Positions 1 to 63,205 of a DNA stretch of 64,000 bases are shown piece after piece. Location: positions 7,484-71,483 of the forward strand of contig CAYMOY010000001.1 of NCBI GenBank assembly GCA_964392435.1, written 5' to 3'. Numbering within the stretch: position 1 is the stretch's first letter; each line of letters starts with the position of its first letter. A model generated the notes under the pieces. It did no database searches and was not told the origin of the DNA. It worked only from the letters and a program-made list of their open reading frames with translations. The position numbers were made by a program, and so were the translations under genes. Source of the DNA: Candidatus Micrarchaeota archaeon. Its GTDB lineage: Archaea; Micrarchaeota; Micrarchaeia; Anstonellales; Anstonellaceae.

Positions 1-1338
1 GCTTGCCCTCATTCTTGCCATGGTGGTAGCGCACGCATAGGGGCAGCACGGCATCAGGCGAGCCCTTGGTTATCACCAGATGCTCATGGCCCTCCTTCAC
101 CACCACGCTCATTCGCCTGCGCACGAAATCGAAAGGTATCTCATCTATCTTGCTGGTGCCAGCCAGCCTCTTCTTTCCCAATGCCTCGTCGTGCGCAAGC
201 ACTGCGCCGTCCATAGGGTTTTTCAGCCCGGTCTGGTAATAGGAGTTCAGGTAAGCAAGCTTCAGCACGCGCACGTCCTCCTGGAAATCTATGTTGACAT
301 GGCGCACCAGCTCTATCTTGTCCTCGGTCAGCGTCCCTGTCTTGTCCGTGCAAAGCACGTCCATGGCACCCAGGTTCTGGATGGAGGGCAGCCGCTTGAC
401 TATCGCCTCCTTCTTCGCCATGTTCTTCGCCCCCTGCGAAAGATTGGCAGTCACGATGACTGGCAGCATCTCCGGGGCCAGCCCGACAGCCACCGCAAGG
501 GAGAAGAGCACCGAGGCGATGATGTCGTTTTTGGTGAAGAAGTTGATGAGGAAAATGCCGACCACTAGGACGAGTATGAATTTCACCATGAGGTTGCTGT
601 AGTCGCTGATTCCCCTGTCAAACGCAGTCTCAGGCGCCGTCTGCTGCAACCGCCTGGCAAGCTCACCAAACTGCGTGTCCATGCCGGTCCGTATCACAAG
701 CACCTCCGCCGAGCCTGAAATCACGCTGGAGCCGAAGAAGACCGCGTTTGCCATTTCCTGCACCGGGGCATTTTGCCGCGACGGGCTGGCGCTTTTTTCA
801 ACAGGCAGCGACTCTCCAGTCAGGGCAGCCTGGTTGACGAAGAAGTCCTTGCACGAAGCCACCCTGCAGTCCGCAGGCACCAGGTCCCCTGCGGAGAGCC
901 TGACGATGTCCCCTGGGACCAGGAACTTTAGGGGGATTTCGCGCACGTTGCCGTCCCTGACTACGGTTGCGGTGTTGCGTATCATCTTGCGCAGCTTCTC
1001 TGCAGCGTCGCGCGCGGTGTATTCCTGGTAGAAGCTGAGCGACACGGACACGAACACCATCGCCGCGATGATTTCTGCAGAGAGGCTGTTCCCGAGGAAA
1101 TAGGAAACGGTTGCGACGGTGAGGAGAAGGAGCATGAGCGGGCTGGCGAAATAAGAGAGGAAAAGCAAGAGCGCGCCCCGCTTTTTTTTCGGAGCCAGCT
1201 CGTTCTTGCCGAAAATCCCCTGCCGCTTCTCAGCCTCGTGCTCAGATATTCCGGTTTGCGATGCCACAAGAAGCTCGTATGCTTGCTCCAGGGGCACTGA
1301 CCACAGGTGCGCCTTTTTCAGGCTCTCGCGCGAGAACA
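1..1338 (-). CDS. P-type cation-transporting ATPase, MgtA-like (N-terminal ~445 aa; C-terminus runs off window start)
   Basis: Manual minus-strand translation from ATG at 1338: MFSRESLKKAHLWSVPLEQAYELL...; contains DKTGTLTEDK phosphorylation motif and LNSYYQTGLKNPMD (MgtA-like). Not in ORF track because no in-window stop. Confidence 0.75.
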
Positions 1339-1467
1339 TCGCTTCAATTGCTTGGTATAGGTATTTATTAGGGTGCCAAAAAGTTGCTTTCGCACATTGG
1401 CACTCAGGTTTCCCCCAGCGAAAGAGCCGTCGCTCTTTTATTCTGCTCGCATTCAAAACTTTCAGAT

Positions 1468-1612
1468 GGGCCCGTAGTCGAACAACCCTTTTGCTCGCTC
1501 CAGATGGGGACGCTCGCAAAAGCGTTGACGGAAAATTGCAAAGGGGTTCGACAATGGTTAAGACGTCGCTCTTACACAGCGAAGATTCGGAGTTCGATTC
1601 TCCGCGGGCCCA
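1468..1612 (+). tRNA. tRNA-Val (anticodon TAC) with ~72-nt non-canonical intron in the D-loop
   Basis: Acceptor GGGCCCG/CGGGCCC, D-stem GTCG/AGAC, anticodon stem TCGCT/AGCGA with loop CTTACAC, T-arm CGGAG-TTCGATT-CTCCG, discriminator A; 5' exon 1468-1482 separated from rest (1555-1612) by intron. Confidence 0.6.
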
Positions 1613-1648
1613 CTGATATTCGGAGTTCGACCGCAAACTGCGCGGCAG

Positions 1649-3406
1649 CTAGCACACCTGGCTGGCTGGAGGGCAAACCGGATTCTGCCCAGGGCAATCG
1701 GTGCATGGGTGCTCCGTCTTCCAGGTGCTTATGGGCCCAAGGCAGCAGCAGCCGTAGGAAAAGGAATTGAACGAAAGCGAAAGGTAGGTGCTGTTCGTGC
1801 TTGAATACCTGCAGGTGGTGAAACACTGTCTGGCTTGAATTGCGGCAAGCGCAGCATTGACATCTGCAGCTATTTTCTGTTCGCACGCGGCGCGCGCGTT
1901 TTCTCCCTGCGCATAGGCGGTCAGCCCTATTCCCTGGCATTCGATTGCGCAGTTCACCGGGACAGGGTCGCAAACATCTCCAATCCCATCCCCGTCATGG
2001 TCGGACTGGCTTGGGTTGTAGCTGCTCGGGCAATTATCTGCAAAGTCGCATTTCCCGTCGGCATCAGTATCCTGGCAGGCGCATAGGCATGACTGGGAGC
2101 AGGAATAGTTTTGCGGGCAGGAGCCAGCATTCCCGTCGCACTCCTCGCCGCCTTCCTTCACTCCGTTTCCGCAGGCTGCGGGCGCTACTGTGTTCTGGCA
2201 GGAACACTGCTGGTTGCAAGTCTGGCTGCCCGAACAAGCGTTTCTATCAGCACCGTCGCACTGCTCGCTTCCCTCGCGGACATTGTTGCCGCACACTGCT
2301 TGCGCGGCTGTTGCCCAGCAGTAGCAGTTGGAGCAGGTCTGTGTCGCATTGCAGTAGCCCCGGTCCGCCCCGTCGCACTGCTCGCTTCCTTCGCGAACAT
2401 TGTTGCCGCACGTGGCGGTGGTGACAGAATCGATTATCAGCACCAGCCCCTTGGTGCTCTGGTTCACAGGGCATCTGCAGTTTGGCTGGCACACTGCGCC
2501 GCCGCAAAGCTCGGCTGATGCCCCGTCGCACTGCTCGGTTATTTCCCTTATCCCGTTGCCGCACACCCCCTTCGTGCCCACCACGCATTCGCACTCTGAT
2601 GAGCATACCTCGTTTGAATCGCAGTACCAGTCCTGATTGCCGTCGCACTCCTCCATCGCCTCCTTGAAATTGTTGCCGCAGGTGTGCGAGGTCACATCCT
2701 TTGGTATGCACGTGCAGGTCCTCAGGTCGCACTTGTAGTCCATGCCGAACAGGTCCGAGCAGTCGTCGCCGCAAGAGGGCAGGGTGGTCCAGATGAAATT
2801 GTTGAGCCCTGTGGATGAGGCGTACTGGTGGTTCGCCTTGCAGCTTATGGGCATTGCCGCGGTGTAGCATTTGCAGCCGCTGCAGTATTCCCCACCGCGG
2901 CATCCGTTGGCTGATGGCTTGTCCTTGCTGCCGACATCGCAAACCTCCCCAGAATCAAGGGTGCCGTCCCCGCAATAAGGCTGGGCGGCCTTGGGCGCAG
3001 GCGGAGCCGTGGTGTTGTTCTGCATCCCTTGCCCTGCGGCATCGGCAGGCTTTGCCTTGCACAGGCAACTGGAAATATTGCATTGCCGATTGGCATCCTG
3101 GCATGCGATGCCCCCCTCGCACTGCTCGCCCCCCTCCAGCTTGCCATTGCCGCAAGATGGAGCTGGCGGTTGCTCTGTTTTGTTTTCTGCGGATGGCGCG
3201 GCAGCCGGGGCAGGTGGCTGGGCATCCTTCTTCACGCACTTGCAAGACCTGCATATTTCATCGATGCCAGCGCAGCCAGCGTCGCTTTCGCACACTTCGC
3301 TCGCATCCAGCCTGCCATCGCCGCAAACAGGGGCAGGCTGCGTGCATCCGAAATACAACAAGGCTGATGATAGCAGAACAAGCAGCAACAAACGGGAAAA
3401 CTCCAC
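1649..3406 (-). CDS. Secreted cysteine-rich repeat protein (Myxococcus-type Cys-rich repeats CGNGxxExxEQCDG plus thrombospondin type-3-like DxDxDGxxDxxDNCP repeat)
   Basis: ORF 1649..3493; probable GTG start at 3406 gives a signal peptide (M)EFSRLLLLVLLSSALLYFGC. Repeated VCGNGIREITEQCDG / TCGNNVREGSEQCDGADR units; DTDADGKCDFADNCPSSYNPSQSDHDGDGIGDVCD. Confidence 0.7.
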   Translation of the reverse strand: MEFSRLLLLVLLSSALLYFGCTQPAPVCGDGRLDASEVCESDAGCAGIDEICRSCKCVKKDAQPPAPAAAPSAENKTEQPPAPSCGNGKLEGGEQCEGGIACQDANRQCNISSCLCKAKPADAAGQGMQNNTTAPPAPKAAQPYCGDGTLDSGEVCDVGSKDKPSANGCRGGEYCSGCKCYTAAMPISCKANHQYASSTGLNNFIWTTLPSCGDDCSDLFGMDYKCDLRTCTCIPKDVTSHTCGNNFKEAMEECDGNQDWYCDSNEVCSSECECVVGTKGVCGNGIREITEQCDGASAELCGGAVCQPNCRCPVNQSTKGLVLIIDSVTTATCGNNVREGSEQCDGADRGYCNATQTCSNCYCWATAAQAVCGNNVREGSEQCDGADRNACSGSQTCNQQCSCQNTVAPAACGNGVKEGGEECDGNAGSCPQNYSCSQSCLCACQDTDADGKCDFADNCPSSYNPSQSDHDGDGIGDVCDPVPVNCAIECQGIGLTAYAQGENARAACEQKIAADVNAALAAIQARQCFTTCRYSSTNSTYLSLSFNSFSYGCCCLGPISTWKTEHPCTDCPGQNPVCPPASQVC

Positions 3407-3504
3407 ATTCCCACCCCCTGAGGTTATCCTCGTTTCGGTTTTTATTTCTTTTGGGCATCCCGAAGCATCATGCTCAAAGCACGCTCCTTCCAAGCCAGGA
3501 AAAA

Positions 3505-4137
3505 TTAGCCCGAATTATTCTGGCTTGGGGAAAGGCGGGGCTCGGCCGGAAGCTCAAAGTCTGCCTCGCCCACAAAATAGGCGATGTCCGTCAAATACTC
3601 CACCTTGATGCCCTTCCCAGTCGCGTTCTGCTCGTCGTAGGCAACCACCCCTCTGTCAGTCAGGCAAACCTTCCTGGTTTCGAATTGCAAGGTGGGCATA
3701 ATGTAGCATCTGCCCTTCGTGTTTCCTATAGCCACCTCTTCCGCCTCCTTCGCGCCTGACAGGTCCGGGGGCGCGAAGAATATTTCCGCGTCTTTTTTGC
3801 TCAGTCCGGCGCTGATGTCAAAGCAGAGGGCATCCGGTCCAGCCCCCCTGCACGAATAAGCCCGGTTTCCCAAAAAGTAAAACCCCAGCCCCCCTTCTTG
3901 GCCTGAGGAGAACTGCAGCCGCATCTTTTGCCCGCTGCGCCACACCTCCTTGACAGTCTCAACTCCGTTGTCATTGATTATGTAGCGCGCCGAATAATCC
4001 AGGCTGCTTTGCGGCACCATGAAGCTTCCAGTATGCATCCCGGCTGAGGGGGGCAGACCGCCTTGAGGTTTCCCTTCCTGCGCGCAGCCGGCAAGAAGAA
4101 CCATTGCCGCAAGCAAGAGGGGCAAGCAGAGTCTCAT
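3505..4137 (-). CDS. Hypothetical secreted/lipoprotein (lipobox LAGC)
   Basis: Internal Met MRLCLPLLLAAMVLLAGCAQEG is a signal peptide; upstream part of the ORF (to 4368) unlikely to be coding. Confidence 0.5.
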   Translation of the reverse strand: MRLCLPLLLAAMVLLAGCAQEGKPQGGLPPSAGMHTGSFMVPQSSLDYSARYIINDNGVETVKEVWRSGQKMRLQFSSGQEGGLGFYFLGNRAYSCRGAGPDALCFDISAGLSKKDAEIFFAPPDLSGAKEAEEVAIGNTKGRCYIMPTLQFETRKVCLTDRGVVAYDEQNATGKGIKVEYLTDIAYFVGEADFELPAEPRLSPSQNNSG

Positions 4138-4188: not shown

Positions 4189-4482
4189 ATGTACCTCAAG
4201 CTCCACAACACGCCTGCCGGCCAGGTGGTGGCTGTCTGCGACGCCGCCATCATGGGCAAAGTTCTCTGCGAGGGCAACCGCAGGCTGGATTTGGAAGCCC
4301 ACTCTGGATTTTACCGGGGAAAAAAGGTCGGCTTGCCCGAGGCGGCAGAGGCGCTTTCTGGCGCGCAAAACGCCAACCTGGTCGGGGAGAAGTCAATAAA
4401 AGCGGCATCTTTGGCAGGGCTTGACGTTTCTGGCGCAATCACAATCTCCGGTGTTCCGCACCTGCAGGTTTACAGGTTTTAA
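4189..4482 (+). CDS. Hypothetical small conserved protein
   Basis: ORF 4063..4482; plausible start MYLKLHNTPAGQVVAVCDAAIMGK at 4189. Confidence 0.35.
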   Translation: MYLKLHNTPAGQVVAVCDAAIMGKVLCEGNRRLDLEAHSGFYRGKKVGLPEAAEALSGAQNANLVGEKSIKAASLAGLDVSGAITISGVPHLQVYRF

Positions 4483-5474: not shown

Positions 5475-6371
5475 TCACCCAACTTCAATTTCCAGCACCG
5501 CCCCCTTCAGAATCGCGCCCCTGCCGGAAAGCCAGCCGTTTATCTCCGCCTCGCTTCTCCCCTCTTTTTTCATGCGCCGCACCTGGGTCAAAAGCGCCTC
5601 TGCCCTTTCAAAGTCCGAATATATGGCATCGCCTGAAAGCTTTGCCGCCTTCTTTTCAGCAATCAGCCCCTCGACAGATTTTTGCTGCAGCTCCAGCCTC
5701 TGCTGCAGACTGGCGATTTTATGCGCAGCCTCCTTTTGCGCCTCGCTTTCTTCCTTCTGGTTCGCATAGTAAAAGTCCGCAGCTTCTGAAAATGTTTTGA
5801 ACGGCACATCGGTTTGTGCGGCTTGCAATGAATAGGAAACCGGCACCCCCTTCTCGTCCAATTTCACCCCGAACACTGGCTTTTGTGGAAGCTTAAGCTC
5901 AAATGAGGTCTCACGCGGGTAACAGTATTTCTCGCCTCTTGCTATCTTCCGCCCGCCGGCTTCCTCCCTGTTCAGGCACGATATGATGACCCCGTCTTCT
6001 CCCACAAAAATCAGATTGCCTTTCCTGAAAAGCTCGAAAACAAGCCTTTCATTGCTTTTTGTCCCTATCTCCACTATCCTGTCGGTTTTGTACTGGCTTA
6101 TCCTCTGCGCTGTTTTCCCCTCGAGATTCTTCCTCAAAAAGGCGACAAATCCGTCTGGCGCGCCCATCGCCTGGTGCGCCTGCATTGTGAGGTGGAACCT
6201 GACAGTCGGCTCAAACAGCAGCTCCGCCCCCCCTATCTTGAACAGGAAAACGCCCCGGTCGGTTTTCCTTATTTTAGCTATCCTCTTCCCCTCCAAAAGC
6301 TTCAGCTCAGAAACTGCAAAATGAAGGTCGGCACCGGACATTTTCTGCATGCCTTGCTTGAAGCGCGGCAT
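5475..6371 (-). CDS. NFACT-N / FbpA-like domain protein (Rqc2/NEMF-family N-terminal domain homolog)
   Basis: ...LHFAVSELKLLEGKRIAKIRKTDRGVFLFKIGG...FEPTVRFHLT... typical NFACT-N; ORF to 6491, likely start MPRFKQG at 6371. Confidence 0.55.
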   Translation of the reverse strand: MPRFKQGMQKMSGADLHFAVSELKLLEGKRIAKIRKTDRGVFLFKIGGAELLFEPTVRFHLTMQAHQAMGAPDGFVAFLRKNLEGKTAQRISQYKTDRIVEIGTKSNERLVFELFRKGNLIFVGEDGVIISCLNREEAGGRKIARGEKYCYPRETSFELKLPQKPVFGVKLDEKGVPVSYSLQAAQTDVPFKTFSEAADFYYANQKEESEAQKEAAHKIASLQQRLELQQKSVEGLIAEKKAAKLSGDAIYSDFERAEALLTQVRRMKKEGRSEAEINGWLSGRGAILKGAVLEIEVG

Positions 6372-8283: not shown

Positions 8284-9945
8284 ATGGCAAAGAATCTAGA
8301 AGGACAACAGGTAATGGTTCTCCCCGAGGGGAGCAACCGCGTGCTTGGGCGGGACGCGCAGCGCATAAACATAGCCGTGGCTTACGCGGTTGCAAACATC
8401 GTGCGCACCACGCTTGGGCCAAAGGGCATGGACAAGATGCTGGTTTCCGAGCTTGGCGACATTGTGATAACAAACGACGGGGCGACCATCCTTGAGGAGA
8501 TGAATGTCGAGCACCCGGCGGCAAAGATAATGGTGGAAATTGCCAAGACGCAGGACAAGGAGGTCGGCGATGGCACCACCACCTCTGTCATGCTCGCAGG
8601 GATGCTTCTGAAGAAGGCGGGCGACCTTCTGGACCAGGACATACACGCCTCCACCATAGTGAAGGGCTACGACCTGGCTTCAAAGAAGACAAATGAGTTT
8701 CTGAACAAGATAGCCACCAAAGTGTCCATAAGCGACAAGGCAATCCTGGAGAAAATCGCATCCATTGCGATGGGCTCCAAGTCAATAGGCGTGGGCACCA
8801 ACAAGGATGCGCTTGCAAAGCTGGTGGTCACCGCCGTCACGCAGGTGGCGGAGCTGAAGAACGGCGCCTACTTCGTGGACGACGAGCTTGTCAAGATTGA
8901 GAAAAAGGCGGGCGGGGACATCAACGACACCGCGCTCATACAGGGTGTGCTTGTCGACAAGGAGATAGTCCACCCGGGCATGCCGAAAAACATCAAGAAC
9001 GGGAAGATTGCCCTTCTGGACTGCGCCCTTGAGATAGAGAAGACCGAAATCGACGCAAAGATAGAGATAACCTCGCCAGACCAGATGCAGGCTTTCCTTG
9101 GGCAGGAGGAAAAGATGCTTCGTGACATGGTGGACAAGATAGCGGCAACAGGGGCGAACGTGGTCTTCTGCCAAAAAGGCATTGACGATGTCGCGCAGCA
9201 CTTTTTGAACAAGAAGGGAATCTCAGCAGTGCGCCGCGTGAAGAAGTCGGACATGGAAAAGCTCGCCCGCGCTACAGGTGGCAAGATAGCCACCACGCTG
9301 GATGACCTGTCAGCAAAGGACCTCGGCTTTGCAGGCGATGTGAACGAGAAGTCAATTGCCGGCGAGAAGATGGTCTTCGTGGAAAACTGCAAGGACGCCA
9401 AGTCGGTGACAATATTCGTGCGCGCCTCCACGGACCACGTGGTCTCGGAAGGCGAGCGGGCGATAACCGACGCGATTGGCGCGGTTTCCTCGGCAATAGA
9501 GGACGGCAGGTACGTGACAGGCGGAGGCTCCACTGAAATCGAGCTTTCCATACAGCTTGGCAAGTACGCAACCGAAATCGGAGGAAGGGAGCAGCTTGCC
9601 ATACAGGCATTCGCAGAGGCGCTGGAGACAGTGCCGCGCACGCTTGCGGAAAACGCGGGCATGGACGCGATTGACGCGCTTGTCAGCTTGCGCTCCAAGC
9701 ACAAGAAGGAGGGCGGGGAGCACTTCGGCGTGGACGTTTACGGCGGGCAGGTTTCCGACATGAAGGCAATCGGGGTGTTCGAGCCACTCAAGGTGAAAAC
9801 ACAGGCAATCGCCAGCGCCTACGAGGCAGCGAAGATGCTGCTGCGCATTGACGACATGATTGCCTCCAAAGGAAAGAGCGGCGGAATGCCTCCTGGCGCA
9901 GGCGGCCCTGGCGGCATGGGCGGCGGCATGGGCGGGGACTACTAA
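8284..9945 (+). CDS. ths: Thermosome (group II chaperonin) subunit
   Basis: 553 aa; [24 protein letters not shown] motifs; C-terminal GGM repeat tail [21 protein letters not shown]. Confidence 0.92.
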
Positions 9946-9962
9946 GGCTTTTTTCTTTTTTT
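9920..9962 (+). repeat. Direct repeat copy 1 (thermosome 3' end + T-rich terminator), matches 11321-11362
   Basis: gcggcggcatgggcggggactactaaggcttttttcttttt identical 42 nt at both sites. Confidence 0.8.
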
Positions 9963-10147
9963 ATTTTCTTTTTTTCCCGGGCTTTTTCACATCAAGCCCG
10001 GAATCCGTTTTTTGCAAATCCCTTCTGCTTTTCCGAAAGGTTTTCAAGTGCGGCTTGTCCAAACTGCCGGCAAACCATCGCCCAATCCCATCAATCATCA
10101 AGCCGGATTTTAAAAATGAGATAATTTATTGCAGTCGTTAGTGTTTT

Positions 10148-10176
10148 TACTAGATTAAATATATTCAAATCTAGTA
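10148..10176 (+). promoter_or_regulatory. Perfect 9-bp inverted repeat TACTAGATT-N11-AATCTAGTA embracing a TATA-like box upstream of the NTase gene
   Basis: tactagattaaatatattcaaatctagta, ~40 bp upstream of 10215 start. Confidence 0.35.
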
Positions 10177-10214
10177 ATAACAAGCTTTATATGTTTTCAG
10201 GCTAAAGCAATACC

Positions 10215-10805
10215 ATGGACAATGCATTCGGCAGAAAATACAAGCGGGTGCTGGAGATACTCCCAGATGTTGCGGAGTGCGCAGGGGAAAAACTGATCCT
10301 GGTGGGCGGGACCGCCCTTGCCCTCTTCCATTTGAAACATCGCGTCAGCGTAGATTTGGATTTCGTGCCTGCCGGCGGCAACGACATCAGGCTAAAGGAA
10401 GAGCTCAAAGGCTGTATGTCAAAGAGAGGCTACCGGACCTCTCCTGGGCGCTTCAAAAACCAGTTCGTGGTGCAGTTTGAGGACACCAGCATAAAAGTGG
10501 AGATTTTCATCCCAGACAGGAAAATCAAGCGCGTCGAAGAGCACGAATTTTGCGCCAGAAAGATACGGGTGGCTTCCTGCGAGGACATTTTTCAGATGAA
10601 AATTGCCGCCTATAAGGACAGGAGAGAGGCGCGCGACCTGTTTGACATATTCTGCATACTTCAGGCCCGCGGGCGGGATTTTGGCATGGTGAAGAAACTA
10701 TTATCCGGCGGCATGCCGAAAAATATCGGCGACCTGGAGATTATGGCGCTTAACCGGTCTGATGCGACTGGATTGCGGAAGGTGATTCTTGATGCTTCTT
10801 CCTAA
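10215..10805 (+). CDS. Nucleotidyltransferase-fold protein (AbiEii/DUF1814- or MNT-like toxin/antitoxin-type NTase)
   Basis: Pol-beta NTase motif LILVGGTALALFHLKHRVSVDLDF (hG[GS]...DxD). Confidence 0.55.
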   Translation: MDNAFGRKYKRVLEILPDVAECAGEKLILVGGTALALFHLKHRVSVDLDFVPAGGNDIRLKEELKGCMSKRGYRTSPGRFKNQFVVQFEDTSIKVEIFIPDRKIKRVEEHEFCARKIRVASCEDIFQMKIAAYKDRREARDLFDIFCILQARGRDFGMVKKLLSGGMPKNIGDLEIMALNRSDATGLRKVILDASS

Positions 10806-11346
10806 GCAGGCAATCAGTTTCCGGTCTCTTTTCGCCCAGGGCTTTGCCAAAACAGAAATCTCATCAATGTCCGCTTCTCTCAAGCTGTTTCCCTCCCCTT
10901 TCAAGGGGATTTATTATGTGCCTTTGGAGGAGGAAAGGAAAGGCGGGTTCATCGAAAAGCCGCTTGCGGCGCTATCCCAGGCAATTCGCATTTTCCTGGG
11001 AAATAGCAATTTTTATTTCAGCTGCCAGACCGCTGAGGAGGCGCTCGGATTTGACTGGCAGCCCTCGGGCAGCGTGCATGTGGTCAATGAGAGGCTTTCC
11101 AGGCGGATAAACCTGAACCGAAGGATTGAGGCAAACCGTGCAAAAGGCAGCTGGCGCTCAAGGAAAATTGCGAAGCTGCTTTCATTTTACGGGACCGAGA
11201 TAGTGTTCCATCGCGGCAGCATTGAACGCGCCAGGACAAAACAGATGCCTTACGGGCAATTCGCGCGCCTGTCGCAAATAAAAAAAGACAGGAAAAGGTT
11301 CAGGGAAATCAAGGGAAACAGCGGCGGCATGGGCGGGGACTACTAA
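10789..11346 (+). CDS. Hypothetical partner protein of the NTase; C-terminal residues NSGGMGGDY are encoded by the duplicated thermosome tail
   Basis: Overlaps upstream gene by 17 nt; ORF terminates with the same stop codon context as ths. Confidence 0.4.
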   Translation: MMLLPKQAISFRSLFAQGFAKTEISSMSASLKLFPSPFKGIYYVPLEEERKGGFIEKPLAALSQAIRIFLGNSNFYFSCQTAEEALGFDWQPSGSVHVVNERLSRRINLNRRIEANRAKGSWRSRKIAKLLSFYGTEIVFHRGSIERARTKQMPYGQFARLSQIKKDRKRFREIKGNSGGMGGDY

Positions 11347-11362
11347 GGCTTTTTTCTTTTTT
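11321..11362 (+). repeat. Direct repeat copy 2 (duplicate of thermosome 3' end), right boundary of inserted cassette
   Basis: Identical to 9920-9961. Confidence 0.8.
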
Positions 11363-11420
11363 ACTTTTTTTGTTTCTTCCTTTTCTTTCTATAGTGCTTG
11401 TCATGCGCTTTTCCATGCAC

Positions 11421-12449
11421 TCACTTCTCATCCGGCGCACACAGCCTTTCCGATATTTTCTTTCCTGAAGGAAGGTATTTTGAGAGGCTATGCGGCAGCT
11501 GCGCGGTCATCCTATAAGTGGAAACACCGATTGGTTTTTTTACCTCTTTCAGCGCATACTCCACAATCGTCCTGTCCTTGCTCTTGCAGATGATTATTCC
11601 AATCGAAGGCTTTTCGCCCCCCATTCTCACCTTGTCATCAAGCACCGAGAGATAGAATTGCATCTTTCCCGCGTACTCAGGCATGAACTCCCCGACTTTT
11701 AACTCTATTGCCACGAGGCATTTCAACTTCCTGTGGTAAAGCAGCAGGTCAACAAAAAACTCGCTGCCGCCGACTTCAAGCCGGAACTGGTTCCCAATAT
11801 AGCAGAAACTGCCGCCCATTTCCACAAGAAAGCTTCTCACCCGTTTCATGAGCGCGCCTTTCAGTTCTTTTTCAGAATGCTCCCCTCCCAGCTCAAGAAA
11901 ATCAAACGTGTACTCATCTTTGACTGCCAGCTTTGCCTGCCCTTTGTACCTGGCTGGCAAGGCTTTATCGAAATTAGTCTGGTTTGTGAGATATTTCTCA
12001 TACGACCTATTCTCAATCTGGTGGATAAGCACGCTTTTCGTCCAGCCAAACTTCCGGATCATTTTGATATAGAACTCCCTTTCAAGGTCGTTTTTGCACT
12101 TCTCCATGACAACTAGGTTCTTAGCCCAGCTGATTTCTCGCACCAATGGTGCGAGTTTTGCATTTTTGCAGTAGCTTTGGTAGAAATTCCGCATTCTCCA
12201 AAGACTGGCGGGGGAAAAGCCATGCACACCGGGATACTCCTTCTGCAGATCAAACGCAAGCCTTTCTACAATCGCCTTGCCCCAGCTGAACTTTTCCTGC
12301 TTCTCGGCTATTTCCCTGCCGATGTCCCAGTAAAGATTAACGAGCTCCTTATTGACTGCCTTCAGCGCGGAATACTGCGCCTCCCGTATCCTGTTCTTAA
12401 TCTCAATTACAAAATCCCTGTAGCCAGATTCCTTTACGAGCGCACTCAT
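11421..12449 (-). CDS. PDDEXK-nuclease family protein (DUF1016/YhcG-like)
   Basis: N-terminal ...AVNKELVNLYWDIGREI... and C-terminal LVAIELKVGEFMPEYAGKMQFYLSVLD match DUF1016; start at internal Met (12449) of ORF 11421..12500. Confidence 0.6.
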   Translation of the reverse strand: MSALVKESGYRDFVIEIKNRIREAQYSALKAVNKELVNLYWDIGREIAEKQEKFSWGKAIVERLAFDLQKEYPGVHGFSPASLWRMRNFYQSYCKNAKLAPLVREISWAKNLVVMEKCKNDLEREFYIKMIRKFGWTKSVLIHQIENRSYEKYLTNQTNFDKALPARYKGQAKLAVKDEYTFDFLELGGEHSEKELKGALMKRVRSFLVEMGGSFCYIGNQFRLEVGGSEFFVDLLLYHRKLKCLVAIELKVGEFMPEYAGKMQFYLSVLDDKVRMGGEKPSIGIIICKSKDRTIVEYALKEVKKPIGVSTYRMTAQLPHSLSKYLPSGKKISERLCAPDEK

Positions 12450-12524
12450 TTCAACCACATCGCGCAAATGTGGGCAGTTCCACGCATTAAAAACATTCAC
12501 AGGGTAGCATGCCAGTAGTTTTTC

Positions 12525-13409
12525 TCACTTCCTTTCCCATCCCCTTGCCATCTCCTTTTCCAGGAATCTCACCAGGGGCGCCACCCCGCGATTGGTCTCG
12601 TAAGCGTGAAGCGCAGAATAGTAGGCGTGCCTTTTCCGGTAAAAGATGACCACGGGCGGCAGGCCGTTTTTCAGCAGTATGTTGTTCATCAGCAGCCTTC
12701 CCACCCTGCTCGTGCCTTCACGGAAAGGGCGGATGTTCTCGAACTGGCAATGCACCAGTGCGGCAAGCACCAGCGGATGGCGCCTTTCCCTGTTGTTATT
12801 ATACCATTCCGCCAGCCCAAAAAGCAAGCCCTTCACCTGGCTCCAGGGGGCGCCCCTGTGCACAATCTCGCCCTGCCGGTTCCTTACCACCAAGTCGACG
12901 CGCCTCAGTTTCCCTGCAAACGGCTCGGAATTCCTGAAAGCCGCCTTGTGCAGCTCCAGCATCAAAGGAACGGACAGGTGCGTTTTTGTCTCAGCCAGCA
13001 TCCTTGTTGCTCTTGCAACCCCGTAGGTTTCGGCAATGTCCTCCTTTGGCTTGTCGGGCCAGAGGTTGTTCTTCAATATCTCGCCTGCCTCCCTCCGGGT
13101 AATGCTTGAGCCTTCGATGGCATTGCTGTTGTAGGTGAAATCCACCACAAATTCCTCCCACTTCTTTTTTCCCACCCTTGCCCTCATTGCCCTTGCCTCC
13201 ACGCTGCCAAATGCGATTTCCCACTGCCCCATCAGCTTTTCCCTGCCCTCAAGCTGCTTTCTGGCAGCCTCGTGTTTGAGCACCAGCTCCTCCCTTCCCA
13301 AATTGGTGCCCAGGTAAACCCTGTCTTTCCTCACCTTCTGCCCCTGCCGGTACGAGCGGGTCAGGTAGAATTTCCTCATTTTCCTTTTTCCCCTTGCCTC
13401 AATGTACAT
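12525..13409 (-). CDS. Fic/DOC family protein with degenerate active-site motif (RPFREGTSRVGR instead of HPFx[DE]GNGRxxR)
   Basis: FTYNSNAIEGSSIT N-terminal Fic motif; core motif has His->Arg and GNG->GTS; TATA-like TTAATAAAT ~25 bp upstream of ATG 13409. Confidence 0.65.
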   Translation of the reverse strand: MYIEARGKRKMRKFYLTRSYRQGQKVRKDRVYLGTNLGREELVLKHEAARKQLEGREKLMGQWEIAFGSVEARAMRARVGKKKWEEFVVDFTYNSNAIEGSSITRREAGEILKNNLWPDKPKEDIAETYGVARATRMLAETKTHLSVPLMLELHKAAFRNSEPFAGKLRRVDLVVRNRQGEIVHRGAPWSQVKGLLFGLAEWYNNNRERRHPLVLAALVHCQFENIRPFREGTSRVGRLLMNNILLKNGLPPVVIFYRKRHAYYSALHAYETNRGVAPLVRFLEKEMARGWERK

Positions 13410-13735
13410 GCACCATCTTGGGTGCCTACAATTTATTAATGCTTTCCAAAAGGTGACCACAAAACAGGCAAATCTTCCTCTGCTCCCCCCTTTTTTCCCA
13501 TCTGCCCCCGCCGCAAGAAAGCGCATCCGGCCCTTCCAAAAGCTGAACCGGCGCATCCTTGGCTCTTTGCGCGCGCAAGGGGGGCGAAGAAATGCTTAAA
13601 AACATTACTTTCGAAGCGTCTGAACGTGGAAGGCAGAATACAGGGCAGTTCAGACTTTTCCAGATGCGAGCACGAGCCCAGCCCCCACAAGGCAATAATT
13701 TTCAGCCAGCGTCAGTACTAATCGAGGTGAGCCAT

Positions 13736-16700
13736 ATGGTGTCCCAAAACACAAAGCAAACGTCCGCGCGCATCTTTTCCGCGATTCTATTCGTAGCGCT
13801 TTTCGCCGGGACGGTTGCTGCCGCGTCAAGTGTAACATCGGTTTCAGCAACTACTGCAAACGGTTCCTATAAGGCCGGTTCCTTCATAAATATAACAGTA
13901 ACATTCAACGAATCGACCTATTATATCGGCGGTATTGGAAATCCCTATTTGCTTTTGAATGTGACTACTGGTGGAAGAAATGTGTCCATATTCTCTCCAG
14001 CTCCTGGAATGGGCTCATTGATATTTAACTTCAACTATACAGTTCAGGAAGGCGACACTTCTGCAGTTTTAGACTATATGAACAATGCATCTCTCACCGG
14101 TAGCATTAAGACCATGGAGGACTCTTCGTCATCCATCTTGACTCTTCCAAATCCTGGTGCGGCAGGTTCGCTTGGCGCGAACAAGAATATTACAATCGAC
14201 ACGTCCATCCCAGGAATCACATCAATCAGCACCAACACAACCGACGGCTCTTACAAGGCAGGGACCAAAATCTACCTGTTCGTTGTCTACAACGACTCTG
14301 TAACAGTGTCAGGCGGAACGCCGACAATCGACCTTAACTCAGCAGGAACTGCCCAGTATGTGGGCGGCTCAGGCTCCACCAACCTCTCCTTCCTATACAC
14401 TGTCGCTGCAGGCGAGAACTCTGCAGGGCTGGTCTACAACACGACAACTTCTCTTAACCTCAACGGCGCCACAATCAGGGACGCTGCAGGCAACGACGCG
14501 GTCGAAACCCTGCCAGCAACCGCGACATTCACAGGGGCACACGCAATTGTCATCGACACCATACCCCCGGTAATCACCGGCCTTGCGCTTTCCCCAAGCA
14601 GCGGCTACGCCAAGATAGGTGATGTAATCCACCTGGCGATAACAGCTGACGCGGCAGGCTACACCAACACATCAATAACGGTCAACGGCATCCCGGCAGA
14701 GGATTTCGAGGACCTGACCGGCGGCGCCTACGGAGTTAACTACACAATCGCAACCGGCCACAGCGACAGGGCAGCAGGGTTAGTCCCTGCAAGCGTCACC
14801 CTGTCCGACGCCGCTGGCAACTCAGTGACGTATTCCACAGTGGGTGCGAACACACTTGAAATAATCGCAAATGCGCCAATAGTCTCCTCAAACGCAATTG
14901 TCACTCCCGCGGGCTCCTACAAGGCTGCGGATGTTTTGAGCTTCTCGGTAACCTACAACAAGACAGTGGTGGTGACCGGCACGCCCAGAATAAAGCTCAA
15001 TGTTGTGGGAGCTGCCACCAGGTATGCGAATTTTGTCTCAGGCAACGATTCGGCCATTCTGGTGTTCAATTACACGGTGGTTGACGGAGACAACTCGGCT
15101 GACCTTGGGGCTGAGGACACAAGCTCGCTTGATCTGAACAGCGGCACAATAAAGGACCTGGCCGGCAACAACGCGGTCAACACGCTTGATGACGACTTCA
15201 CAGGAAGCAGCGTGGTAGTTGACACGTCCATCCCTGGAATAACGTCAATCAGCACCAACACAACCGACGGCTCTTACAAGGCAGGGACCAAAATCTACCT
15301 GTTCGTTGTCTACAACGACTCTGTAACAGTGTCAGGCGGAACGCCGACAATCGACCTTAACTCAGCAGGAACTGCCCAGTATGTGGGCGGCTCAGGCTCC
15401 ACCAACCTCTCCTTCCTATACACTGTCGCTGCAGGCGAGAACTCTGCAGGGCTGGTCTACAACACGACAACTTCTCTTAACCTCAACGGCGCCACAATCA
15501 GGGACGCTGCAGGCAACGACGCGGTCGAAACCCTGCCAGCAACCGCGACATTCACAGGGGCACACGCAATTGTCATCGACACCATACCCCCGGTAATCAC
15601 CGGCCTTGCGCTTTCCCCAAGCAGCGGCTACGCCAAGATAGGTGATGTAATCCACCTGGCGATAACAGCTGACGCGGCAGGCTACACCAACACATCAATA
15701 ACGGTCAACGGCATCCCGGCAGAGGATTTCGAGGACCTGACCGGCGGCGCCTACGGAGTTAACTACACAATCGCAACCGGCCACAGCGACAGGGCAGCAG
15801 GGTTAGTCCCTGCAAGCGTCACCCTGTCCGACGCCGCTGGCAACTCAGTGACGTATTCCACAGTGGGTGCGAACACACTTGAAATAATCGCACATCTGCC
15901 TGTGGTTTCTTCAGTTAGCTCGGATGGTCGGACATTCAATACTGGGGGCAGTTCAACCTCTATAATAACAGTTACTTTCAACAAGAGCATGAGTGTTGCC
16001 CCCTCAATATCTGTCAACAGCTTAAGTTTAACAGTGAATGACTGTGGCGACTCGAATGCAACGACTTTCTGCATTGCCTACCAAATACCGAGCTCATACG
16101 CAGGCAGTATGACTATACAGATTTCCGGGGCAAAGGACCTGGCAGGAAACACGATGGCGGCGGACAACTCGCACACTTTCGATGTTGACACCGTCCTGCC
16201 CACAGTGACCGCATCCTCGCCGCAGGGAGGCACTTCCGCATCCTCGCCCATTACAATTAACGTGACCACCAGCATAGCGGCATACTGCAAGTATGACACG
16301 CAGGACCGGTCGTATGCCACAATGGCATACAACTTCAGCAACGGGCAGGGAACAACCGCGCACACAAGCAGCGTGGCACTCGCCTCGCAGGGGCTCAACA
16401 ACATCTACGTGGCTTGCGCGAGCATGAACGGAAGCGCAATGACCTCATCTGTGAGGCTGTACACCACATATGACACCACCAGCAACTTCAACTACACCAA
16501 GCAGCTCAACCTTGGGTGGAACGACATGCCTCTGCCCAGAGTGGTTCTGGAGGACCTCGACTCGTTCTCTGACGGGAACTACAGCGTGGTGAACGTGCTT
16601 GAGACAAAGGGCGGGATAGGCGGCAGCTACGACTACCTGTACTACCGCAACGGCACCTCCTGCTCGTCGCAGAACGGGAGCTGCTGGCTGTTCTACGACC

Positions 16701-16798
16701 CGTCACTTGTGACTGGCACCCTGTCTGAGTTCAACGACTGGGACAACCTGCCATACTGGATACACATGAACGCCAGCGACAGGCTGGAGCTCAACTAG
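13736..16798 (+). CDS. Large secreted surface (S-layer-like) glycoprotein with repeated Ig-like domains and internal perfect DNA repeats
   Basis: SD GAGGTGA then MVSQNTKQTSARIFSAILFVALFAGTVAAA signal; >60 N-x-S/T sequons; repeated ~110-aa SYKAG...LNGATIRDAAGNDAVETL modules. Confidence 0.75.
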   Translation: MVSQNTKQTSARIFSAILFVALFAGTVAAASSVTSVSATTANGSYKAGSFINITVTFNESTYYIGGIGNPYLLLNVTTGGRNVSIFSPAPGMGSLIFNFNYTVQEGDTSAVLDYMNNASLTGSIKTMEDSSSSILTLPNPGAAGSLGANKNITIDTSIPGITSISTNTTDGSYKAGTKIYLFVVYNDSVTVSGGTPTIDLNSAGTAQYVGGSGSTNLSFLYTVAAGENSAGLVYNTTTSLNLNGATIRDAAGNDAVETLPATATFTGAHAIVIDTIPPVITGLALSPSSGYAKIGDVIHLAITADAAGYTNTSITVNGIPAEDFEDLTGGAYGVNYTIATGHSDRAAGLVPASVTLSDAAGNSVTYSTVGANTLEIIANAPIVSSNAIVTPAGSYKAADVLSFSVTYNKTVVVTGTPRIKLNVVGAATRYANFVSGNDSAILVFNYTVVDGDNSADLGAEDTSSLDLNSGTIKDLAGNNAVNTLDDDFTGSSVVVDTSIPGITSISTNTTDGSYKAGTKIYLFVVYNDSVTVSGGTPTIDLNSAGTAQYVGGSGSTNLSFLYTVAAGENSAGLVYNTTTSLNLNGATIRDAAGNDAVETLPATATFTGAHAIVIDTIPPVITGLALSPSSGYAKIGDVIHLAITADAAGYTNTSITVNGIPAEDFEDLTGGAYGVNYTIATGHSDRAAGLVPASVTLSDAAGNSVTYSTVGANTLEIIAHLPVVSSVSSDGRTFNTGGSSTSIITVTFNKSMSVAPSISVNSLSLTVNDCGDSNATTFCIAYQIPSSYAGSMTIQISGAKDLAGNTMAADNSHTFDVDTVLPTVTASSPQGGTSASSPITINVTTSIAAYCKYDTQDRSYATMAYNFSNGQGTTAHTSSVALASQGLNNIYVACASMNGSAMTSSVRLYTTYDTTSNFNYTKQLNLGWNDMPLPRVVLEDLDSFSDGNYSVVNVLETKGGIGGSYDYLYYRNGTSCSSQNGSCWLFYDPSLVTGTLSEFNDWDNLPYWIHMNASDRLELN
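14222..14869 (+). repeat. 648-bp perfect direct repeat, copy 1 (inside surface protein gene)
   Basis: Identical to 15245-15892 (offset 1023 bp); ORF track shows identical spurious ORFs 14358..14573 and 15381..15596. Confidence 0.9.
15245..15892 (+). repeat. 648-bp perfect direct repeat, copy 2
   Basis: See copy 1; flanking 25 nt nearly identical with 3 mismatches. Confidence 0.9.
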
Positions 16799-25082: not shown

Positions 25083-25117
25083 GCAATTCTTCCCCCTGCC
25101 CGTGAATATAAATCGTT

Positions 25118-25200
25118 CGGTTTTTATTCGGCGCACCGAATAAAAATCTGATGCATTTTCGTTGCAACGAAAATGGCACATCGGTTTTTATTCGGCGCAC
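25118..25200 (+). promoter_or_regulatory. Palindrome cluster: IR TTTTTATTCGG-N4-CCGAATAAAAA (25121-25146), perfect 18-bp palindrome TTTTCGTTGCAACGAAAA (25156-25173), second copy of CGGTTTTTATTCGGCGCAC (25182-25200)
   Basis: Located between histone 3' end and the start of the membrane-anchored regulator gene. Confidence 0.45.
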
Positions 25201-25364
25201 TGAACAATAAGCGATGCGTTCTGCAGCGCAAAACCGCGCCCCTTTTTGCCCCGCAAAAAAGACGCCTTCCACACCTCTGTGATGGTGGCAAAGGGGGAAA
25301 AGACGATTTGCAGCTATGACTCTGATTCCGTAAAACAGGCCAGGCGCCAGGGGCCTGAATGGGG

Positions 25365-30719: not shown

Positions 30720-30771
30720 TTTGCCCCGGGGGCGTATCCATTTCCCTCGCCTAGCCTGCGGGTCAGCTTCT

Positions 30772-30897
30772 GGAAAAAGCTCACGCTTTTTCCATCTTAT
30801 CTGAGCCTGTCGGCTCAGATTCAGGAAAAATCTATCAAGATTTTTCCATCCGATTGGAATTGAGATTCCAAGTCTGGAAAAAGCTCACGCTTTTTCC
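30772..30897. repeat. Array of five hairpins in convergent intergenic region: GGAAAAAGCTCACGCTTTTTCC (30772-30793 and identical 30876-30897), variant GGAAAAATCTATCAAGATTTTTCC (30824-30847), interleaved with palindromes CTGAGCCTGTCGGCTCAG (30801-30818) and TTGGAATTGAGATTCCAA (30854-30871)
   Basis: 52-bp periodicity of the GGAAAAA/TTTTTCC units; T5/A5 runs on both strands suggest bidirectional terminators. Confidence 0.6.
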
Positions 30898-31391
30898 ATC
30901 CTATCCAAAAAGCCCTGCGCCTTTTTCCGTATGCCCTGGCTGCCCAGAGGCACCACCACCGCGCCGGCATCGGGCTGCCCGTAAACAAGGGTGCCCCCCT
31001 TTGCGCGTGCCATAACAAGAAGGGAAGTCAAATCGTCCTCGCCAACCACAAATATCGCGCCGCTGCCTGCCGCAAGCACGCTGTCCACGGCTGATGAAAG
31101 CTCGTCGGTTATAACTCCGGGCGGGGAGAGGACCACAAAAGCGCTTGCAGCATGCAAAGCAAAGGTTTTTTTCATATCCAAAGGTATTTCCGCCCGCTTT
31201 ATCTTGAAATCAAATGCCAGTATGTCAGGCGCATTGCCAAGCCGTATCATGTCAAATGCGCATTGGTCCCCAACCGATATGAGCGGCCTTTTCGCCGCGG
31301 CAAGGGCAGCTTCCAGTTTTTCCTTTCCCAAAACAGTGCCAAAGGGCTTGCGCACCTCGTCTCTTAGGTGTTCTGGCAATCTCAGCATCAA
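30885..31391 (-). CDS. DUF359-family protein (possible GTP-dependent dephospho-CoA kinase)
   Basis: 168 aa; weak recollection-based family assignment (ISVGDQCAFDMIRLGNAPDILAFDFKIKR). Confidence 0.4.
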   Translation of the reverse strand: MMLRLPEHLRDEVRKPFGTVLGKEKLEAALAAAKRPLISVGDQCAFDMIRLGNAPDILAFDFKIKRAEIPLDMKKTFALHAASAFVVLSPPGVITDELSSAVDSVLAAGSGAIFVVGEDDLTSLLVMARAKGGTLVYGQPDAGAVVVPLGSQGIRKKAQGFLDRMEKA

Positions 31392-62948: not shown

Positions 62949-63017
62949 GATGATTACCTCTTTTGCGCGCCAGCGCAAAACTGCACGGATGGCGAAGCGC
63001 CTCGGGCAGGATGGAGC

Positions 63018-63076
63018 AAACCGAAGGTTTGCGACAGCTTTGGAGCTTCAGCTCCAAACTGCACTGATGGCGAAGC
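63018..63076 (-). repeat. Partial duplicate of tRNA-Asn 3' end plus 20-nt trailer (TCCTGCCCGAGGCGCTTCGCCATCxGTGCAGTTT), separated from the gene copy by hairpins GGAGCTGAAGCTCC and GCAAACCTTCGGTTTGC
   Basis: Plus-strand ctgcacggatggcgaagcgcctcgggcagga (63022-63052) vs ctgcactgatggcgaagcgcctcgggcagga (63060-63090). Confidence 0.6.
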
Positions 63077-63205
63077 GCCTCGGGCAGGACTTGAACCTGC
63101 GACCTATGGATTGCTGCCGTTGCATTCGCAACAGTTAACAGTCCATCGCTCTACCGTTCAGTCTCAAGAGGGCGCACCCTCAAGAAAAGACTGAGCTACC
63201 GAGGC
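63077..63205 (-). tRNA. tRNA-Asn (anticodon GTT) with two introns: 33-nt D-loop intron and 24-nt canonical 37/38 intron
   Basis: Acceptor GCCTCGG/CCGAGGC, D-stem GCTC/GAGC, anticodon stem ATGGA/TCCAT, loop CTGTTA|intron|A, T-arm GCAGG-TTCAAGT-CCTGC, G73. Confidence 0.65.

Follow-up and report, generated by a model that had tools for sequence, protein, structure and literature searches.

The stretch analysed here comprises 64,000 nucleotides (nt) of contig CAYMOY010000001.1 from a Micrarchaeota (DPANN) archaeon and is referred to as the window. Behind its thermosome gene (ths) it carries a cassette of about 1.36 kb which encodes an AbiE-type toxin-antitoxin pair and is flanked by two identical 42-nt copies of the tail of ths. 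The direct repeat and the in-frame fusion of the last cassette gene to its right-hand copy are confirmed. Regarding the origin of this arrangement, the best reading of the data is an att-type (Campbell) insertion of an integrase-less AbiE cassette by a recombinase supplied in trans, which we hold with moderate confidence. The locus is a clean and apparently recent insertion (42 of 42 repeat positions are identical) in which an essential, highly expressed chaperonin gene is left undamaged and the antitoxin gene keeps a terminator. The target gene, the two repeat copies and the parts of the cassette are arranged as follows (open reading frame, ORF; amino acids, aa):

8284 to 9945, plus strand: thermosome gene ths, the insertion target, intact (Pfam Cpn60_TCP1, E=2.4e-180).
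9920 to 9961, plus strand: left repeat copy, attL-like, which spans the final 7 codons of ths (21 nt), its TAA stop and a further 16 nt of T-rich terminator.
9962 to 10124, plus strand: lineage-specific spacer that opens the insert on its left side, unlike other cassette copies, to which nucleotide homology starts at ~10112-10142.
10147 to 10193, plus strand: control region of the cassette, with a palindrome, AACAAGC and a TATA-like box.
10215 to 10805, plus strand: AbiEii (DUF1814, PF08843) nucleotidyltransferase, putative toxin, 196 aa (Pfam E=7e-18).
10792 to 11346, plus strand: ORF B, putative divergent AbiEi-like antitoxin/repressor, 184 aa, with its last 8 codons and stop in the right repeat.
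11321 to 11362, plus strand: right repeat copy, orphan, attR-like, which gives ORF B its final SGGMGGDY, its stop codon and a T-rich terminator.

The repeat GCGGCGGCATGGGCGGGGACTACTAAGGCTTTTTTCTTTTTT is exact in both copies (9920-9961 and 11321-11362), with a segment of 1,359 bp between them, as the initial annotation of this DNA had proposed. When up to three mismatches were allowed, there were still only two matches in the window, and dinucleotide-preserving shuffled controls gave none (0/100). Ungapped extension lengthens the repeat to 55 nt at 93% identity, the 13 added nt being merely T-rich. A third copy of the ths tail was looked for in the window, including the surroundings of the YhcG and Fic genes downstream, and not found, nor were other repeats of the gene-tail kind seen there. 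The alternative raised with the initial annotation, that the 42-mer is a common terminator module, is ruled out by its two sole occurrences in the window and by the absence of matches in the contig searches. The ths gene is intact and its tail matches that of its relatives, which share the same GGMGGDY or GMGDY C-terminus followed by the stop codon and a T-rich tract, in agreement with the idea that the target gene was regenerated.

ORF B (10792/10789..11346) continues into the right copy without a change of codon phase, its C-terminus being ...RFREIKGN-SGGMGGDY. The claim that this gene reads into the duplicate and borrows GGMGGDY and the stop codon held up in two respects. The ORF B-to-tail junction was seen again in an independent Logan assembly of run SRR12133403 (locus L081), whose contig ends 30 nt inside the repeat because a k=31 graph branches at a true repeat. 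The ATG-start form of ORF B (protein P0001) is on record from a 938-bp Logan contig only, and exact-protein look-ups returned no record of ths or of the TTG-start form. Furthermore, the more than 100 homologues of ORF B stop 0-30 residues past the conserved ...DRKRFRE, with a short and variable tail, and none of them has GGMGGDY; the tail is therefore borrowed, and a native origin is ruled out.

With AbiEii, an AbiEi-like ORF B and a conserved promoter and palindrome, the segment 9962-11320 can be read as an AbiE-type toxin-antitoxin cassette that is complete and brings its own control region, and the description of the cargo as a nucleotidyltransferase toxin and its antitoxin was supported. 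The AbiEii product scores 65.9 bits against a Pfam cut-off of 22.5, matches 18 PADLOC AbiEii models (best E=1.9e-17) and contains the GG[TS] and DxD motifs. ORF B and the toxin gene overlap by 14 nt. No Pfam or NCBIfam model matches ORF B, and PADLOC AbiEi does so only marginally (E=0.008). Its AlphaFold2 model has a predicted local distance difference test (pLDDT) score of 88, with residues 176-185, the borrowed tail, disordered; the best-matching solved structures are Rv2827c (1zel) and Streptococcus agalactiae AbiEi (6y8q), with a Foldseek probability of 0.96-0.98 and E=0.009-0.014 and a TM-score of only 0.38-0.42. ORF B may be regarded as a divergent AbiEi-like antitoxin on the grounds of this fold, and both toxicity and its neutralisation are predicted. 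Its family comprises more than 100 proteins, typically of 172-180 aa, and appears to be Micrarchaeota-specific, all named members being from this group. In the window, as in all related loci, the toxin gene precedes its partner, whereas the antitoxin gene comes first in the AbiE norm. The cassette represents a new variant of AbiE, spread across Micrarchaeota, in which the gene order is reversed and the putative antitoxin belongs to a family outside every current profile library.

The control region contains the palindrome ACTAGATT-N11-AATCTAGT, with arms at 10149-10156 and 10168-10175 (DNA fold z = -3.3), followed by AACAAGC and by the TATA-like TTTATAT (10186-10192), which lies ~22 nt before the ATG. 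This block is kept in 22 other loci and shows compensatory changes in the arms, e.g. CTAGGTTAAA..TTTAACCTAG. AbiEi antitoxins autoregulate via inverted repeats in their promoters (PMC7319586; PMC3985639), and by analogy with AbiEi biology (PMC7319586) the palindrome could act as an operator. The 163-nt spacer 9962-10124 holds a GC-rich 8-bp hairpin (CCGGGCTT..AAGCCCGG, ~9977-10001) and no gene remnant. An Rfam scan of 9500-14000 gave no family at threshold and one sub-threshold chance match. It should be noted that ths and the AbiEii gene have a 14-nt stretch in common, GGCATGCCGAAAAA, which encodes GMPKNI in both (8977-9009 and 10710-10742); since the motif is kept in AbiEii homologues of other loci, this is most likely a coincidence and not an exchange.

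The comparison with relatives shows that the segment is an insertion. A genome-contig scan with ths reached species representatives that were at nearest 76% identical and not syntenic downstream, and closer relatives were obtained by protein search. Among relatives with long contexts, loci L088 and L092 encode the most similar thermosomes (90-92% aa identity, ~84% nucleotide identity of ths). Upstream of ths, L092 (GCA_026414185.1) has the same order as the window: ACT, ACT, NFACT, S-adenosylhomocysteine hydrolase (SAHH), oligonucleotide/oligosaccharide-binding (OB)-fold protein and ths. Directly after ths, L092 encodes a large surface protein, a product of 351 aa, inositol-1-phosphate synthase and CDP-alcohol phosphatidyltransferase, which correspond to window ORFs 13559, 18487, 19673 and 21629. 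In L088 the homologue of the surface protein lies 284 nt past ths. By tblastn synteny, the window has an extra 3.6 kb (9946-13558) with respect to both, made up of AbiEii, ORF B, YhcG and Fic. The genes behind the right repeat copy are the following:

11421 to 12500, minus strand: YhcG/DUF1016 PD-(D/E)xK nuclease, PADLOC candidate defence family PDC-S02 (YhcG_C E=5e-60, DUF1016_N E=5e-44, PDC-S02 E=1e-142).
12525 to 13556, minus strand: Fic-domain protein, PADLOC PDC-S04 / SoFic-like (Pfam Fic E=3e-15).
13559 to 16798, plus strand: large surface-type protein of 1,079 aa, where conserved synteny restarts (homologue directly after ths in L088 and L092).

The G+C content is 0.45-0.52 across 9.8-12.4 kb versus 0.55-0.60 in ths, i.e. 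~5-10 points lower. The cassette, the YhcG-like nuclease and the Fic protein form a small defence islet behind ths and, because the relatives are without the whole 3.6-kb block, the 42-nt repeat brackets only the first 1.4 kb of it. The intergenic DNA downstream of ths was compared between the window and L088, L089, L092 and L093, and the alignment scores were within the shuffled range, this DNA being too diverged to place boundaries. In the same conserved neighbourhood, L088 (Ga0643848_0020767, 674-1216) has a ParE-toxin gene and a gene for an 81-aa partner between SAHH and the OB-fold gene, just upstream of ths, which are missing in the window and in L092; this pair is a further small insertion of toxin-antitoxin genes.

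The closest homologue of the window cassette is found in L093 (Ga0247841_10044575, 2389-3524), with 77% and 75% aa identity of the two products and 94% identity of the ths C-terminus. There the cassette abuts ths in convergent orientation, with the ORF B stop at 3496 and the ths stop at 3522 (minus strand). Either insertions recur at the 3' flank of ths, or cassette and ths are old neighbours whose arrangement has since changed. The nucleotide divergence between the two cassettes is ~23%, and relative to it the full identity of the 42-nt copies indicates a recent event or, otherwise, concerted evolution.

The same two-gene cassette is present in more than 60 Micrarchaeota loci. Homologues of AbiEii and ORF B are adjacent and overlapping in essentially all of the ~60 loci with upstream sequence, and the neighbourhoods of these loci are unrelated. 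Nucleotide homology between copies runs from the operator region (~10112-10142) to the ORF B stop (~11308), 9962-10111 being unique to the window. L084 and L097 are 94% identical over exactly the 1.3-kb unit plus a 41-nt right-hand repeat and have nothing in common outside it. Moreover, there are six further contexts in which the module alone is bounded by direct repeats, and a host-gene tail could be identified in four of them:

L095/L096: repeat of 243 nt, the 3' tail of a gene for a 455-aa membrane protein.
L098: repeat of 99 nt at 96%, the tail of the same 455-aa membrane-protein gene, with more remnants after the neighbouring ATPase cassette.
L101: repeat of ~85 nt (65-85), the tail of a class I aminoacyl-tRNA synthetase gene that converges on the module, duplicated through the stop codon.
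L108: repeat of 67 nt at 85%, with no source gene assigned.
L084/L086: repeat of ~30 nt, with a decayed left copy, the common core CCTTGCCTTGCACC, alternative right arms and no source gene assigned.
L099/L156: repeat of 29-36 nt, the tail of the RuBisCO large-subunit gene, in four copies.

All seven repeat-bounded units, the window included, contain the two-gene module alone, with a start-to-start spacing of 1,250-1,643 bp. In these seven cases the right copy lies 0-38 nt past the ORF B stop or replaces it, and 108-271 nt separate the end of the left copy from the toxin ATG. No repeat was detectable at ~40 other cassette loci.

In L099 (Ga0082335_1000919) and L156 (European Nucleotide Archive ERZ27253369, k141_1042827) the RuBisCO tails, which in L099 are at 1901-1929 (the true tail), 3053-3081, 4283-4311 and 5533-5562, delimit three single-function cassettes, which carry three small ORFs (one of them DUF2283), an AAA ATPase and the AbiE module, respectively. 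The RuBisCO gene and the lysW-lysK operon enclose this array, and there is no integrase within 10 kb of it in L156. It looks integron-like, yet the repeat is the host gene's own tail. In L098 (Ga0315293_10048931, 415-3553) the membrane-protein tail flanks the module on either side and is seen once more behind an inserted AAA_14/DUF4143 ATPase gene. The orphan tail of L095/L096 (Ga0315284_10049469, Ga0315282_10019405) keeps ~99% identity for 196 nt and then falls abruptly to ~62%, with an indel and in-frame stop codons. This fall fits an element-borne replacement tail joined at the crossover, since a one-step duplication should age uniformly.

Concerning recombinases, a tyrosine recombinase of ~398 aa (Phage_integrase domain plus a C-terminal Zn ribbon) is encoded immediately past the post-ORF B repeat in L084, L085 and L094. 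In L100 a tyrosine recombinase gene stands immediately upstream of the module, and N-terminal remnants are present in L097 and L124. The repeat concerned, the 41-nt CAGACCCAAGCATCACCCTTGCCTTGCACCCCCTGCATCTT (L084 6553-6593), follows ORF B and recurs 1.2-4 kb downstream, where it flanks other cargo (L084/L085/L094, L086/L087, L097, L100); the L084 integrase gene starts ~100 nt beyond it. L084 and L086 are 98.6% identical and begin to diverge just past the post-ORF B repeat, and L100 combines the integrase-proximal repeat arm with a different distal arm, the switch being at the common core. Judging from these sequences, the L084-lineage repeat behaves like an att site with its core near GCACC|CCCTGCA. 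The integrase family gave 2,223 matches at E<=1e-10, and the named ones among the best 120 (P0229-P0348) are all from Micrarchaeota. Its members have ~400 aa and a C-terminal Zn ribbon, and some are annotated as 'XerA'. The genes often occur as divergent pairs with variable cargo, and ars genes stand alongside in L158. No tRNA genes were found at the repeats of the L084/L086/L097 lineage. Only in L120 (VFSW01003321.1, 703-820), whose contig starts inside AbiEii, does ORF B abut a tRNA gene: a convergent tRNA-Leu(TAG), a classical integration target, has its 3' end 20 nt away from the end of ORF B.

According to the mechanism proposed for the window, the incoming element would have been a cassette of 1,401 bp, presumably circular, bearing one copy of the ths tail (at least 42 bp identical). 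A conservative Campbell-type crossover between this tail and the 3' tail of the chromosomal ths would yield a complete ths with its own stop and oligo-T terminator (attL-like, 9920-9961) and an orphan tail (attR-like, 11321-11362) that now provides the last 8 codons, stop and terminator of the antitoxin gene. The recombinase would most probably have acted in trans and belonged to the ~400-aa Zn-ribbon tyrosine recombinase family, which is abundant in Micrarchaeota and stands beside the cassette elsewhere. After insertion, the toxin-antitoxin pair would favour its own retention (addiction) and may act as an abortive-infection defence; AbiE has been described to stabilise an integrated element (PMC11062541). 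The circular intermediate, the recombinase, the toxicity and its neutralisation, and the operator binding are inferred. Conservative site-specific recombination in trans is favoured because of the core-plus-arms structure of the L084-lineage repeats, the adjacent integrases, the identically bounded cassettes of the arrays and the known precedents (PMC6563490; PMC5704250). The initial annotation had called the event a site-specific integration. This is upheld in part by the integrase beside the cassette and the duplicated host tails elsewhere, while the recombination itself is deduced and the tails and orientations vary.

Several observations weigh against the att-type insertion. The absence of an integrase noted initially was confirmed, given that tblastn of the window with the cassette-linked integrase gave no match and a Pfam scan of 10 other window ORFs showed no Phage_integrase. 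An empty site is indicated only in a broad sense: relatives without the cassette exist, but the nearest ones miss the larger 3.6-kb block and do not offer a precise 1.4-kb site. No second ths tail was found in the 4.3-kb contig of L093, and the duplication of the ths tail was seen in none of 81 other thermosome loci. The expectation that the 42-mer might turn up on viral or community contigs was not borne out: a degenerate 33-nt pattern built from the end of ths and its terminator had 0 matches in viral contigs and 0 in metagenome contigs, and neither an attP-bearing element nor a contig of the same species came up. Likewise, no relatives of ORF B were found on viral contigs, and no small circular or terminally redundant contigs of the cassette family were found. 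Furthermore, a single fixed att specificity is insufficient, given that the tails around the cassette come from different genes and stand in either orientation to it (L101 versus the window), and the att model does not account for repeat lengths of 29 to 243 nt among the repeat-bounded contexts. Int-pTN3 is reported to recombine any pair of identical sequences, and an enzyme of this kind would account for the variety of tails. In addition, the 42-bp identity could serve homologous recombination equally well.

Among the other explanations, the locus could be the decayed remnant of a larger element, as the initial annotation had considered along with a minimal one: an integrase-bearing element would have entered the ths tail, and deletions would have spared only the toxin-antitoxin pair and the att sites. 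The integrase genes adjoining the module in L084/L085/L094 and L100 and the remnants in L097 and L124 would be expected of such a history. The formation of cis-mobilizable elements (CIMEs) by decay is documented in streptococci (PMC5704250), and of all parts of an element, the toxin-antitoxin genes resist deletion best (PMC11062541). However, the 7/7 repeat-bounded units, in different genes and lineages, hold exactly the two-gene module (1,250-1,643 bp) and no integrase pseudogene fragments, and independent losses would not halt at identical boundaries each time. Neither the spacer, free of gene remnants, nor the 42/42 identity, which speaks for a recent event, suits a long decay. A minimal cassette fits better because the seven units hold the module alone, and decay is considered rather unlikely. 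A recombinase-independent, duplicative origin is likewise unlikely. It would be either a RadA-type single crossover of a circle with a captured ths tail, or template switching of the kind of microhomology-mediated break-induced replication, with the fork leaving after 9961 and re-entering 42 nt back. Homologous single-crossover and template switching stay live because of the different tails, the variable lengths (29-36, 42, 65-85, 67, 99 and 243 nt), both orientations of the cassette to the tail and the lack of a duplicate in L093; varying lengths, targets and orientations are what homology or microhomology events would give, and no integrase was found within 10 kb in L156 or in the window (by tblastn with the cassette-linked integrase and in the scanned ORFs). 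Such an origin leaves unexplained the repeated insertion of the same 1.3-kb unit with the same ends and the fact that other single-gene cassettes of these arrays have identical boundaries. The repeats of L084, L086 and L100, with a short common core, alternative arms and strain differences that start from the core, are typical of a site-specific crossover, and the fall from 99% to 62% in the orphan tail of L095/L096 fits a tail carried by the element. Moreover, 42 bp is short for efficient homologous recombination.

An assembly artefact is very improbable. A free 1.4-kb circle sharing ~42 bp with the chromosome could have been threaded once through the shared node, and repeat-insert-repeat is the exact output of a loop in an assembly graph; the Logan contig, which ends within the repeat, offers no link between ORF B and the YhcG side. 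Nevertheless, 42 nt is below the final k-mer sizes of standard metagenome assemblers, which means that junction k-mers must exist in the reads, and the same architecture recurs across independent assemblies and samples (L095, L096, L098; L099 versus L156/L157). Both facts make a graph loop unlikely. The small circular contigs of the family that it would imply were not found and, even if it were true, there would still be a mobile cassette with a copy of the ths tail. A target-site duplication by a transposon or insertion sequence is ruled out, as there is no transposase and there are no terminal inverted repeats, and the duplications vary from 29 to 243 nt; the sole terminal inverted match of the segment is a low-complexity 17-nt T-run/A-run.

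The att-type insertion has clear parallels. In Thaumarchaeota, integrated mobile genetic elements (iMGEs) are found in the 3'-distal parts of protein genes, and also in tandem arrays (Krupovic et al. 2019, PMC6563490), and integration at the 3' end of protein genes is mentioned for other archaea too (PMC8371274). The use of a chaperonin gene as an attachment site, at first described as unusual, is thus new as an instance, whereas its principle is already documented in archaea (PMC6563490). As in the Thaumarchaeota iMGEs, the target is the 3' end of a protein gene, the gene is restored, the repeats stand as attL/attR, sites are re-used in tandem and insert-free relatives serve as a check. On the other hand, those elements range from kilobases to tens of kilobases and usually encode their own integrase or a casposase; the present one has 1.4 kb, two genes and no recombinase, its host is a DPANN archaeon and its target the thermosome gene. 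The streptococcal CIMEs, which are flanked by att sites, integrase-less and accreted in tandem at the 3' ends of housekeeping genes (PMC5704250), resemble it in these flanks, in lacking integration and transfer genes, in their target and in having several units per site. They differ in being heterogeneous and thought to be decayed integrative and conjugative or integrative and mobilizable elements, in contrast with a single minimal module that has the same ends behind different genes, without a conjugation context and in an archaeal organism.

Regarding the cargo, the cassette agrees with AbiE type IV systems (PMC3985639, PMC7319586) in the DUF1814 toxin, the partner with a putative AbiEi/Rv2827c fold, the overlapping bicistron and the promoter palindrome. 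It departs from them in having the toxin first, an antitoxin below Pfam and NCBIfam detection whose family is apparently Micrarchaeota-specific, and a borrowed 8-residue chaperonin tail. In Escherichia coli, e14 and phage 21 integrate in the 3' end of the housekeeping gene icd, bring a replacement end and displace the old tail, which stays behind as an orphan. Such orphans in the window and in L095/L096 look the same. Unlike the window cassette, e14 and phage 21 are complete prophages with an integrase, and the replacement segment in the window is only 42 bp.

The likeness to integron cassettes lies in the short, promoter-proximal units of single function, the site-like repeat after each of them, their arrays (L099/L156, L098) and a recombinase located outside. 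The differences are that the repeats have no hairpin or R''/R' cores and are copies of host-gene tails, that the cassettes have their own promoter, and that there is no IntI/attI platform: ths precedes the window cassette, and the L156 array has no integrase in its 10-kb surroundings. In fold comparisons with shuffled sequence, neither strand of the 42-nt repeat came out ahead (z = +0.9 and +1.1), and the single strand forms no hairpin. An integron attC site is ruled out, as there is neither a hairpin nor IntI. As a tentative idea, to which we give clearly less credence than to the att-type insertion, Micrarchaeota may have an integron-like and mechanistically distinct system. Short defence or toxin-antitoxin cassettes of single function (the AbiE module, AAA ATPases, small pairs), each ending in the tail of the adjacent housekeeping gene, would be stacked in arrays and moved by a recombinase encoded elsewhere or by an undescribed copying of tails; the ths cassette would be one fresh unit of it.

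DPANN archaea have tiny genomes, and the ways in which they gain and exchange accessory genes are, to our knowledge, hardly understood. Duplicated tails of housekeeping genes repeatedly flank the AbiE cassette and other one-gene cassettes, in some cases in arrays inside core operon regions. Should these units be moved by a recombinase acting in trans, or in some other way, this would be a general route of defence-gene flux in Micrarchaeota and a natural example of minimal att-plus-cargo cassettes in archaea. What is new here is the DPANN/Micrarchaeota host, the thermosome target, the extreme minimalism of the unit, and the tails of different housekeeping genes around the same cassette and around arrays of other one-gene cassettes.

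Finally, other repeats were observed in the window. The surface-type ORF 13559..16798, which has no Pfam match, contains a 300-nt direct repeat (14198-14497 and 15221-15520, 99% identity, 1,023 nt apart), which is a very recent internal domain duplication. At 2127-3155 there are six copies of a 48-nt unit, ~117-153 nt apart (last gap 474 nt), with the core CCGTCGCACTGCTCG...GTTGCCGCA; they are inside a minus-strand ORF of 614 aa (1649..3493) that looks like a repeat-domain protein. Three close pairs of direct repeats of 30-52 nt, with 87-97% identity and a spacing of 64-104 nt, are located at 25117-25210, 30769-30905 and 62960-63089, and two of these pairs have hairpin-like palindromes, e.g. 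TCTGGAAAAAGC..GCTTTTTCCA.

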